64,000 nucleotides of DNA from positions 574,787 through 638,786 of the forward strand of contig JAAOMT010000183.1 in assembly GCA_016748015.1 (NCBI GenBank), given 5' to 3'. The notes under the pieces were generated by a model. That model did no database searches, had not been told where the DNA came from, and saw nothing but the letters and a program-made list of their open reading frames with translations. This document shows positions 60,195 through 64,000 of this stretch, in pieces; within the stretch, counting starts at the first letter, position 1; every line of letters begins with the position of its first letter. The DNA comes from Geosiphon pyriformis uo1. Its lineage: Eukaryota; Fungi; Glomeromycota. The position numbers and the translations under genes were made by a program.

Positions 60195-63100
60195 TTAATA
60201 TTGTCTCATTCTTGAGAGGCTATCAACATTGGTGTGTAGTTTTCCTGGTTTGTAATGTACAATGTATCTGTAGTCTGTTAGGAAGTCATTCCATTGAGAC
60301 TGTTTGGCACTTTGTTCAGTTTTCTTTTTATTAAGCCATTTGAGGCCAATATTGTCAGTTATTATGTCAAATTCTTTTCCATTCTTCAGGTATTGTTGAA
60401 AGTGTTTGAGAGCCCAAATGACTGCAGTGGCTTCTAATTCAGTTAAGCCATATTTGAGTTCTGTTGGCTTAAGTGTTCTGCTGGCATAGACAATAACTTG
60501 TTCCTGGCTATTTTCATCCAATTGTGATAAGATGGCACCAAATGCTATGTGTGAAGCATCAGTGGCTAATTGGAATTGTTTGTTGAAGTCTGGGTAAGCA
60601 AGAACTGGGGCTGTTGTCAATTTTGTTTTGAGAGTTTCAAAAGCTTTTTGTTGTTCTTCAGTCTATTTGTATAGTACATTTTTGTTGGTAAGATAATTGA
60701 GTGGTTTGGCAATTTTTGAGAATCCTTTTATGAACTTTTGATAGTAAGAGACTAATCCTACAAATTCTCTTAGTTCTGTAGTATTTCTGGGGGTTTGAAA
60801 GTTTTTGACAGCACTAATTATTTCTGGATTTGGTTTGACTCCATCTTTACTAACTATGTGTCCAAGAAAGATCAAGCTTGTTTTTTTAAAATGACATTTC
60901 TCAATGTTTAACTTTAATCCTGCTTTCCATAATCATTAAAAAACTTCTCGCATGTAAATGAGATGAATTTCAAAGCTTGGTAAGTATACATTAATGTTAT
61001 CAAGATAGACAATTACTGATTGCCACAAGAGTTCTTCATATACAACATCCATGAGTTGCTGGTGCATTGCAGAGTCCAAAAGACATAACATTAAACTCAT
61101 AGTTTCCTCCCTGGGTGGTAAATGCTGTTTTGGGCTGGTCTTTTGGATCCATTTCGACTTGCCAGTATCCACTTTTCAAGTCTAAAGTTGAGAAGAACTT
61201 GGCTTTTCTTAGAGCATCTAGCATGTCATCAATTCTTGGAAGAGGGTAGACATCTTCAATTGTAACACTATTCAGTTGTCTATAATCAACACAGAATCTG
61301 ATTTTTTTGTTTTTCTTTTTAACTAAAACTACTGGTGAGGCCCAAGGACTTCTTGATGGTTGAATCAATCCGTTATTGAGCATTCTTTGGACCTCTTCTC
61401 TGATGAATTGGTGGCTGGCAGGTGGCACTCAATAAGCTTGTTGATGTTTTAGTGGAGCATCTCCTGTATGGATCTGATGTTGAACAATGTTTGTTTTTCC
61501 CAAGTCATTGTTGTTTTTTGCAAATATATCTGCAAATTCAGCTATCAATTGTTTCAATTGTCTTTGTTGTTGAGGTTCTAAGGGACCCATGTTGATTTGA
61601 GAGAGTTTTTCTTCCAAAAAGTGGTAGTTTTCAGTGGTGAGAATAATATTTAGATTTGGGAGTAGAGTGTGCCTTACAATTTCGATGAAATTAAAAACAA
61701 TTTGAAGGTTTTCATCTTGAAAAATATTGCTGTGTATGATTCCAATCTCTAGTTTGTTTAATAAGACAATAGGGTAATTATTGGGGTTGTAGAATGTAAC
61801 TCAAAATTTTTTCATTCTTTTGGGAATATAAACATTTGGAATTAAGATTTCATGCTTCAAACAGATTTGTTCATTGGATTTAAAGATTTGTTGTGTAGTG
61901 GTGGGTTTTGAGCAAGTGTAAATTTCGTGATGTTCTCCAAAAAGTGAAATGGTAATTGGCTGGAAAAGTTGAAGAATCTGGTGAGATTCATTTTGTGTAT
62001 TAAGAGCTATGTTTACTGGAACTGTAAATCGTTCAGTTGAACCAAAATCTTGAGTTCTTCTTTCACTTTTTCCCAATTGTTCTCTGTTGTTTACTGATTG
62101 TAATCTCGAAATGTTAATTAAGAGTAAGTAAATTGCTTGAGCAATTTTTTCAGCATGTTCAATTTTGAATGGTTTGTCCGTCTCATTCTGTAATATAATG
62201 GTAATGTCTCTAGTGTATCCTGCATCTATAACTTCTCCTTTAATATTAATTTCTTTGCTTAACAATGATGATCTGAAGGCAATTTGAACTATTGCTTCTG
62301 GTGGAATTTCAAGAGCAATTTTGAGATTGATTTTTGTCAAGGACTTTGGTTGGAGAACCAAAGTATCTTTTCCTGGGTATCTTAGATCATATCCAGTATC
62401 AATTTCGTGTGTTTTTTCTGGTCTGATTCCTTGGCCATGGTTGTCAAAATATTTAAGTTGTAGAGATGGTTGCTTTTCAAGAAGATAGATGAGGGTGGTT
62501 GGTAGTTCTTCTACTAGTTCAAATACTCCAAATTCGATTTTATTTTCATCATTCTTATCTGGCAGAGGAATGCTAAGAGCATAACATTCTAAACACCATT
62601 GGTCATCACAAAGCATAACACATTTTTCACACAATTGAATGTTCATTTGCTCTAATCATTGAATTTAAGCTTCTTTGGTCAGATATGTGTGGCTTGCAAT
62701 TTGGTAATAGGTTTCTACTTTATCTTCATAATCAAATCCAGCTAATTCCATAGTATACTCAATATATTCAGCTTCTTTCATTTGGCAGACATCTTCTTGG
62801 GTGGCTCTATTAATCAATGCCATTGCTAGGTCAAAAATTATTTCAGCATCATAAGGATAGTGGTAAAGTTTATTAAGAGCACTGTTGTATGTTGCATCAA
62901 ATGGTATTCTTTTTCTGACTTTTTCCGAAATTGATAGAGCATATTGACAGGTTTGATTACATACTTCTTCTCTCATTGCTACATCAATCCAATTGCATTC
63001 TTCTGGTAGCATTTCTCCACATGTAAGACAAGGTGTATTGTCCCATTTTCCACTTCTTTTTGGAGATCCAAATTGTTCTCTATGACATGCTTTGCAAAAG

Positions 63101-64000
63101 TAACAAGTACGAGTTTCATATTCCTCTTCTGGAGAAATATATGCTTCCATTGATGAAAGTTTTTTGTTGCAATCTTTGCATTTGAGTAGAATATAGAGTG
63201 GTTGTTTCCATGGTTCTGGTGTAGAATATCTAACTTTCTTCCATCTTTTTGATTCTTCAAAAATCTCCTGTTTTGTTTCTTCAGCCCAATTGGATGTTGC
63301 TCTAAGAGCCATGTAGGTTTTAGTAAGTGGCATTTTTTTCTCCTCTTCAAATTCAAATATTGGGGCTTTTTCTAATCGTTTGTTAAAAGTACCACAGGTT
63401 GCAGGTACTATAGTATATTGTTTTTGGTATGAGATTTTAAGTTCTTGAGTTTCCCAGTTCAGGTTTGCATTGGCCTTAAGAAGCCAATCATTTCCAACTA
63501 GAGCTTAGTATTAGGGTGCATCCATAACAAAAACTTTAACTGGAATGGTGATTCCATCAATTGAAAAAGGGAAATCATCAATTTCTCCTACTAGAGTCTT
63601 CTTTATATCATTAGCTATGACAATAACTGTTTGAGCTGGTCTGTCTACATTTTGTTTAAGTTGTTGCATCAGCTGGTAAGTGATGATACTTCCAGCCAAT
63701 CTACTATCTAAGATTAAGCGAATGGGTTTTTTTTTTACTGTAGCTTCTGTGTACATAGCAGTAATTGCTTTCTGTTTATTGACTGCTGCATTACTAAGCA
63801 GAAATGGTGATTCATTTGCTTCAAACTCAAAAGGGAATATATCTGAAAGGTTAGTGTTTTCAGCGATTCTGGCTGGTGGGATTGTGGTAGGAGTATAGGA
63901 AGGGTTTTGTTGTTGTGCTGCAGCTCTACCTTCCAAAGATGCAATATAGTAAAAATCCTGTTTTTCTGGCATTGTTAAATAACTGGGTTGAGTGTGGTAG
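60195..64000 (-). pseudogene. pol: F PR-Cys-dUTPase-RT-RNase H polyprotein
   Basis: LILDSRLAGSII; CKDC...CYFCKAC...CLTC; DTGYDL...FGST (~62030-62430); [20 protein letters not shown]; ends SLSRMRQY-TAA. Confidence 0.93.

Follow-up and report, generated by a model that had tools for sequence, protein, structure and literature searches.

A cysteine-rich segment of 218 amino acids, encoded in frame between the aspartic protease and the dUTPase of a decayed Ty3/Gypsy element of Geosiphon pyriformis, represents an unnamed accessory domain which was functional in active elements, as purifying selection between element subfamilies indicates. Our overall reading, to which we give a probability of roughly 45%, is a released protein-binding adaptor. 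That a dUTPase can be located between protease and reverse transcriptase (RT) is already known from fungal and rotifer elements; a description of this real, selected and unnamed domain did not emerge from the literature covered.

The domain, its host element and selection

The window, the whole stretch of 64 kb that was analysed, is crowded with Ty3/Gypsy elements that are nested in one another and decayed, and the last of them, on the reverse strand, carries the copy of the domain described here (copy F). A single reverse-strand frame from position 63999 encodes the Gag tail, protease, Cys-rich domain, dUTPase, a 140-aa domain and the start of the RT, with RNase H and integrase following after frameshifts; the order Gag-protease-RT-RNase H-integrase identifies the host element as Ty3/Gypsy. 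The features of this element are, all on the reverse strand:

63400-63753, reverse: aspartic protease of copy F, decayed
63304-63321, reverse: junction motif after the protease, putative cleavage site
62563-63216, reverse: copy F of the Cys-rich domain (218 aa), in frame in the protease/dUTPase interval, interrupted by two in-frame stops
63085-63180, reverse: finger 1 (C13/C16/C41/C44), predicted treble clef
62947-63030, reverse: finger 2 (C63/C66/C86/C90), spaced like TRASH fingers, modelled with low confidence
62660-62946, reverse: acidic helical bundle, predicted
62584-62631, reverse: five-cysteine tail (CxxCxxxCxxxxCxxC), which together with the two helices before it forms the core shared most widely
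62479-62496, reverse: junction motif before the dUTPase, putative cleavage site
62041-62430, reverse: dUTPase (Pfam E 2.6e-15)
61621-62040, reverse: 140-aa domain of the dUTPase/RT interval, without Pfam match
58890-61600, reverse: RT, RNase H and integrase with GPF module, frameshifted and decayed

In total the window holds seven copies of the domain, two of them partial, the others being:

812-1465, forward: copy A (tblastn, 83% identical)
7144-7464, reverse: copy B, N-terminal half only (tblastn, 45% identical)
30285-30370, reverse: copy G, Cys tail only, ends approximate, with its own protease at 30998-30645
41405-42073, reverse: copy C (tblastn match 42043-41426, 32% identical)
47492-48130, forward: copy D (tblastn match 47522-48109, 36% identical)
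53869-54525, forward: copy E (tblastn, 64% identical)

The initial annotation had proposed a Cys-rich segment of about 210 aa between protease and dUTPase with a cysteine spacing kept in other copies, and both proposals hold, as the segment is in frame at 63216-62563 and copies A, E, B (in part), C and D were recovered by tblastn where it had placed them. The helical motif that it quoted matches the reading of copy A and differs from copy F at four positions, and it had missed copy G, from which about 730 bp are deleted. The protease directly precedes the domain in each of copies A to E, and a dUTPase then follows in A, C, D and E.

The cysteines of copy F are arranged as C13-x2-C16-x24-C41-x2-C44-x18-C63-x2-C66-x19-C86-x3-C90 in the N-terminal part and, after the helical middle, as C196-x2-C199-x3-C203-x4-C208-x2-C211, that is, 13 conserved cysteines in three groups (4+4+5). 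The four-pair pattern occurs five times in the window, as homologous and not independent copies, and in none of 100 base shuffles. In an alignment of 100 rows, the 13 columns are 74-93% Cys among the covering rows; the commonest replacement is Tyr, a loss expected from post-insertion transitions, and CpG in copy F is at 0.16 of expectation. Two stops, at codons 184 and 187, make copy F a dead copy.

Long terminal repeats (LTRs) are represented by a repeat of about 750 bp, 89% identical between 6386-7138 (3' of A) and 50511-51263 (5' of E), which was matched between elements and not as a pair on one element, the elements being cut or interrupted; an LTR-like repeat of this length, found also at 28498-29212, is common to the A/E/F group. 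Downstream of the integrase an additional ORF of ~200-235 aa is located in F (58650-57950, reverse), A (5530-6160, forward) and the divergent C (37480-36855, reverse), the F copy of which had no match in a Pfam search. For the 140-aa domain (62040-61621, reverse) a dN/dS of about 0.2 indicates purifying selection; by eye it looks similar to the beta-rich spacers in Pol proteins of other Gypsy elements, and it may have a degenerate dUTPase-like fold.

Selection on the Cys-rich domain was estimated by the Nei-Gojobori method for window copies and one metagenomic pair. Between F and E dN/dS is 0.19 (CI 0.10-0.29), next to 0.17 for the dUTPase, 0.10 for the protease and 0.81 for a shifted-frame control, and the sub-parts give 0.11 (finger 1), 0.24 (finger 2), 0.19 (helices) and 0.21 (tail). 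The pair C-B equally shows 0.19, distant pairs, near saturation, range from 0.27 to 0.55, and the pair of metagenomic loci L003-L002 gives 0.34. Purifying selection between families, on which the initial annotation had made its proposal depend, is therefore present, and the close pair F-A at 0.74 (CI 0.41-1.52, spanning 1) points to decay after insertion. Synonymous divergence between elements A (40-6569) and F (63995-57521) is uneven (protease 0.61, Cys-rich domain 0.10, integrase 0.055), which points to recombination between subfamilies.

A segment that is no more than a non-functional spacer, or a piece of a host gene captured recently, would agree with the broken state of all window copies, with the F-A value and with the absence of the domain from most related Gypsy elements. 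Selection between subfamilies, intact homologues (the metagenomic protein P0231 and locus L003), conservation across families only 30-45% identical and the lack of a cellular homologue among the matches listed nevertheless leave this explanation with hardly any probability, and it can be regarded as already largely refuted.

Predicted fold and family assignment

An AlphaFold2 model of residues 340-555 of P0231, built on 100 alignment rows, reached a moderate pLDDT of 68.8 and pTM of 0.37, and a second model 72.9 and 0.42. In the P0231 model finger 1 is confident, finger 2 (pLDDT 40-56 over residues 51-80) is poorly resolved and leads into a helix at 85-98, and five more helices and a low-confidence tail follow. 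Finger 1 (residues 1-46) superposes on the treble clefs of LIM, FYVE and ZZ domains (rmsd 1.5-2.9 A over 38-42 residues, Z 3-4), on LIM at 1.5-2.3 A with Z 3.1-4.0, and LIM tops the Foldseek results at E 0.2-0.6, below significance. The helical part has its best matches in the wide structure search, Z 5.3 and 7.3, with unrelated helical bundles. Neither Foldseek against PDB and viral models nor the wide structure comparison gave a significant fold match, weak scores that are no proof of a new fold. The domain is predicted to consist of a LIM-like treble-clef finger, a second finger, a helical bundle and the Cys5 tail, and the models suggest that it binds three zinc ions; the several zinc sites of the initial annotation are consistent with the 13 conserved cysteines and with the superposition of the predicted finger 1.

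No known family claims the domain in Pfam (six window copies and eight finger segments), PHROGs (four proteins), NCBIfam (10 proteins) or PDB sequence searches, one of which matched dUTPase columns only; as the initial annotation had stated, no family could be assigned, and no domain known at this position of Gypsy Pol emerged from these searches. The best ESM Atlas scores, 0.85 and 0.82, are leads only.

LIM domains follow the pattern C-x2-C-x16-23-H-x2-C-x2-C-x2-C, with a His ligand and a 2-residue spacer, and membership was rejected because the third ligand is Cys, the spacer has 18 residues and the best Pfam LIM match, in one of six copies, has E 3.1. Fingers of the TRASH/MYM(FCS)/FLZ type are spaced C-x2-C-x19-22-C-x3-C, which C63-x2-C66-x19-C86-x3-C90 of finger 2 fits, with an FC motif at the third ligand in L003; none of the respective Pfam models matched three finger-2 segments at E<=10. 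A c-type cytochrome or heme site (CxxCH) was rejected, as the weak Pfam and NCBIfam matches fall below the cut-off and the His is absent in P0231, C, D, E and the metagenomic locus L002, and so was a nucleocapsid CCHC knuckle, as C-x2-C-x4-H-x4-C is absent from the domain and its charge is acidic (pI 4.7). Comparison with RING/A20-type fingers gave only rows of E>1.8 in PDB and E>=0.2 in viral models and no Pfam RING above the cut-off; with no RING or A20 fold standing out in the structure comparisons, the suggested ubiquitin-pathway interactor finds no support in them, and the chromatin interactor or anti-silencing factor that the initial annotation also suggested is a conjecture. The domain would act like a tandem treble-clef adaptor and is not a member of the LIM, nucleocapsid or cytochrome families.

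Distribution and the cargo slot of Gypsy Pol

The best 120 of 296 homologues comprise 119 hypothetical proteins of G. pyriformis and the window's own, and in a second search the best 120 of 373 are all named G. pyriformis; the copy number of the domain, in the hundreds, rests on these protein records. Among the G9A89_* protein records, decayed pieces of elements figure by the hundred as 'hypothetical proteins' of the host, many of them with false introns placed across stops, and gene and domain counts for the genome are inflated as a result. In a profile search, 447 of 1.8 billion representatives matched; among 10 examined of the 150 listed, nine are from Geosiphon and one is P0231, a metagenomic protein with an unbroken frame of 1064 aa encoding protease, the domain (340-555), dUTPase and RT, whose identity to the best-matching members of the subfamilies in Geosiphon is about 40-48%.

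A first metagenome scan for the domain had no match, and a pattern scan found six loci, four of them real (L004 and L006 being chance pattern matches). In L001-L003, all of them Gypsy elements, a dUTPase follows the domain, and L003 is open from the protease through the domain. Profile comparison aligns L003 from C41 to C211 with a probability of 97%; as the score comes from the last 50 residues, and the N-terminal halves of L002 and L003 alone score without significance against the Geosiphon profile, the shared core consists of two helices and the Cys5 tail. No homologue was found in viral contigs (six pattern matches, all chance), prokaryote genomes (two matches, chance), or phages and plasmids. 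As far as it could be read, the literature on Geosiphon, Gypsy elements and dUTPase does not describe the domain.

Among the best 120 Pol relatives of P0231, five carry the domain, all five with a dUTPase, and six (P0360, P0361, P0364, P0368, P0370, P0371) run protease-dUTPase-RT without it. Another 13 have a small Cys module of another kind, GP-x3-CxC-x10-CxxC as recognised by eye, and no dUTPase, a Rhizophagus irregularis relative has neither, and L003 combines small module, domain and dUTPase in series. This variation in module content and the series in L003 show that the protease/RT interval is a slot for exchangeable modules. The small module (P0378, P0380, P0381, P0383, P0384, P0386-P0388, P0398, P0403, P0411, P0415 and P0470; region 1450-1400, reverse, of L003) represents a second unnamed small zinc module in this interval of many metagenomic Gypsy elements. 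An RT tree by a quick method (117 rows, 149 columns) is poorly resolved and places P0362 apart from the Geosiphon rows without strong support.

The fourth real locus, L005, is a single contig of 2071 bp, cut just upstream of an ORF that consists of the C-terminal half of the domain, with a stop right after the Cys tail; a dUTPase may be encoded elsewhere in the element. This half reaches 61.7 bits against a profile made from Geosiphon and P0231 sequences alone, and 29 bits once the Cys tail is removed. Adjoining it are an ORF that matches DUF5679 at E 5.6e-6, just short of the cut-off, and one for an rve integrase that has a chromodomain and lacks the HHCC finger. The best match of this integrase among the compared Gypsy proteins is 27% over 77 aa. 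The integrases of Polinton/Maverick elements and adintoviruses are described with a chromodomain and without HHCC finger (PMC2836005, PMC8502044); by its rve integrase with these features, the N-terminal HHCC finger being absent, the 2071 bp of L005 are probably of the Maverick/Polinton type. An unrelated DNA mobile element shares the C-terminal half, on one 2-kb contig. No relatives of L005 were found in viral contigs. The search for homologues outside transposable elements that the initial annotation had recommended found none among the matches listed, the one non-Gypsy homologue, L005, lying itself in a mobile element. The contig (1-2071) is gene-dense: besides the integrase, which has one stop, and the C-half of the Cys-rich domain, it contains a zinc-ribbon ORF (DUF5679) and a fragment of an ORF that resembles a protease.

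Release, candidate functions and comparison with known systems

A short motif, [VITA]-[NY/F]-hydrophobic, recurs across families at five Pol junctions, Gag/protease, protease/domain, domain/dUTPase, dUTPase/spacer and spacer/RT, in linkers that are otherwise unalignable; in its strict form it is present at 79 of 104 domain/dUTPase junctions, from related copies, compared with 456 of 7200 random windows. As the same motif flanks the domain and marks the other junctions, the domain is likely released by the element's protease as a product of about 276 aa (63312-62485), which makes the separately processed protein of the initial annotation a likely, motif-based, proposition. We take the motif to resemble the processing sites of Ty3. 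The portion of PMC6952103 available does not give processing-site sequences.

The domain is acidic in six of six sequences (pI 4.4-5.3, net charge -6 to -15), with an N-terminal half whose net charge, -2 to +4 across the five full-length sequences, ranges from about neutral to weakly basic. The charge (for pI 4.7, net -13 to -15) disfavours the nucleic-acid interactor suggested initially. Gag has a CCHC knuckle of its own (near 52717 in copy E), so that the domain is no substitute for the nucleocapsid, and knuckle and acidic charge together make a protein partner likelier than nucleic acid. Direct binding of DNA or RNA by the fingers and the helical bundle, as a genome chaperone or target-site reader, is accordingly very unlikely given the overall charge of -6 to -15, even though some TRASH/FCS fingers, the spacing of which finger 2 shares, bind RNA and the N-terminal half carries little net charge; a weak helix match to the I-beta DNA-binding subdomain of Mu transposase (Z 5.6, rmsd 3.4 A, 63 residues) falls in the range of common helical arrangements.

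In the adaptor reading, the domain, encoded in frame inside the Gag-Pol polyprotein of a fungal Ty3/Gypsy family, would be cut out at both ends by the element's protease and would then serve, in the particle or in the complex for integration, as an acidic adaptor for another protein. Integrase, or a host chromatin or defence protein acting on integration, would be the favoured partner, given that an integrase adjoins the C-terminal half in the non-Gypsy element. Counting against the adaptor, along with the moderate models, the weak fold matches and the motif-based reading of cleavage, is the constant presence of a dUTPase after the domain in Gypsy elements (62 of 74 proteins with enough sequence, three of three Gypsy loci), which favours a dUTPase-linked role.

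Such a role could be that of a tether: still joined to the trimeric dUTPase, or binding it, the domain would anchor the enzyme in the reverse-transcription complex, in the way of betaretroviral NC-dUTPase. This is possible, if somewhat unlikely, as domain and dUTPase are separated by a linker, varying from 37 to 94 aa, that contains a junction motif, at least six related Pol proteins have the dUTPase without the domain, and the domain is acidic whereas nucleocapsids are basic. Besides the adjacency, it is favoured by precedents for zinc-finger/dUTPase fusion (PMC4531489, PMC1802613) and for an extra zinc knuckle beside the dUTPase in Juno (PMC5408684).

Alternatively, the domain could counteract a host uracil-excision, deamination or silencing factor, as an acidic DNA mimic or degradation adaptor in parallel to the dUTPase. 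While the strong negative charge, the coupling with dUTPase, the occurrence in unrelated mobile elements (L005) and the very large Gypsy expansion in the host, with LTR sequence at 41.2% of the G. pyriformis genome (PMC11952901), would fit, selection between F and E is purifying and not diversifying, the weak-scoring fold searches revealed no likeness in fold or sequence to a known inhibitor, and the proposal is purely inferential, so that we consider it improbable. Equally doubtful is the broader proposal of a new zinc-binding accessory family exchanged between fungal Gypsy and Maverick-type elements, with a shared counter-defence or integration-targeting role which would have helped Gypsy elements to take ~40% of the Geosiphon genome.

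In fungal LTR retrotransposons, accessory proteins have hardly been characterised, and here is a long domain, selected as strongly as the neighbouring enzyme, with hundreds of copies in the LTR-richest glomeromycete genome and records mis-filed as host 'hypothetical protein' genes. It links the cargo of Gypsy elements to a DNA element of another class, offers a concrete candidate for how such elements handle host defence or choose their targets, and has intact homologues that are expressible.

Compared with known systems, the domain is like LIM and TRASH/MYM(FCS)/FLZ fingers in the clef superposition of finger 1, the CxxC-x19-CxxxC of finger 2 and the predicted tandem of two clefs, but unlike them has no His ligand, an 18- instead of a 2-residue spacer, no Pfam match, and a helical bundle and Cys5 tail. 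Ty3/Gypsy elements with a dUTPase are on record from fungi, PosPlaTy3-5 of Postia placenta and elements of Phanerochaete and Tuber, with the same Gypsy order and the dUTPase between protease and RT; the portion of PMC2864245 available does not mention a multi-finger domain before the dUTPase, and the Geosiphon elements of the window, in contrast to the PosPlaTy3-5 type, show no chromodomain after the integrase. The paired-CXXC accessory ORFs termed 'Oncoids' in adintoviruses recall L005 as small ORFs of integrase-bearing DNA elements, a likeness by description; 'Oncoids' are defined by Rb-binding motifs (PMC8502044). Juno of bdelloid rotifers shares with Geosiphon the dUTPase between protease and RT and an adjoining zinc module, which in Juno (PMC5408684) is one zinc knuckle after the dUTPase and in Geosiphon a 218-aa three-site domain without CCHC before it. 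Betaretroviral NC-dUTPase (PMC4531489, PMC1802613) likewise places a zinc-finger protein directly N-terminal to a trimeric dUTPase in a polyprotein, but the nucleocapsid is Gag-derived, of CCHC type, basic and stays fused, whereas the Geosiphon domain is Pol-encoded, all-Cys and acidic, with a likely cleavage site before the dUTPase.
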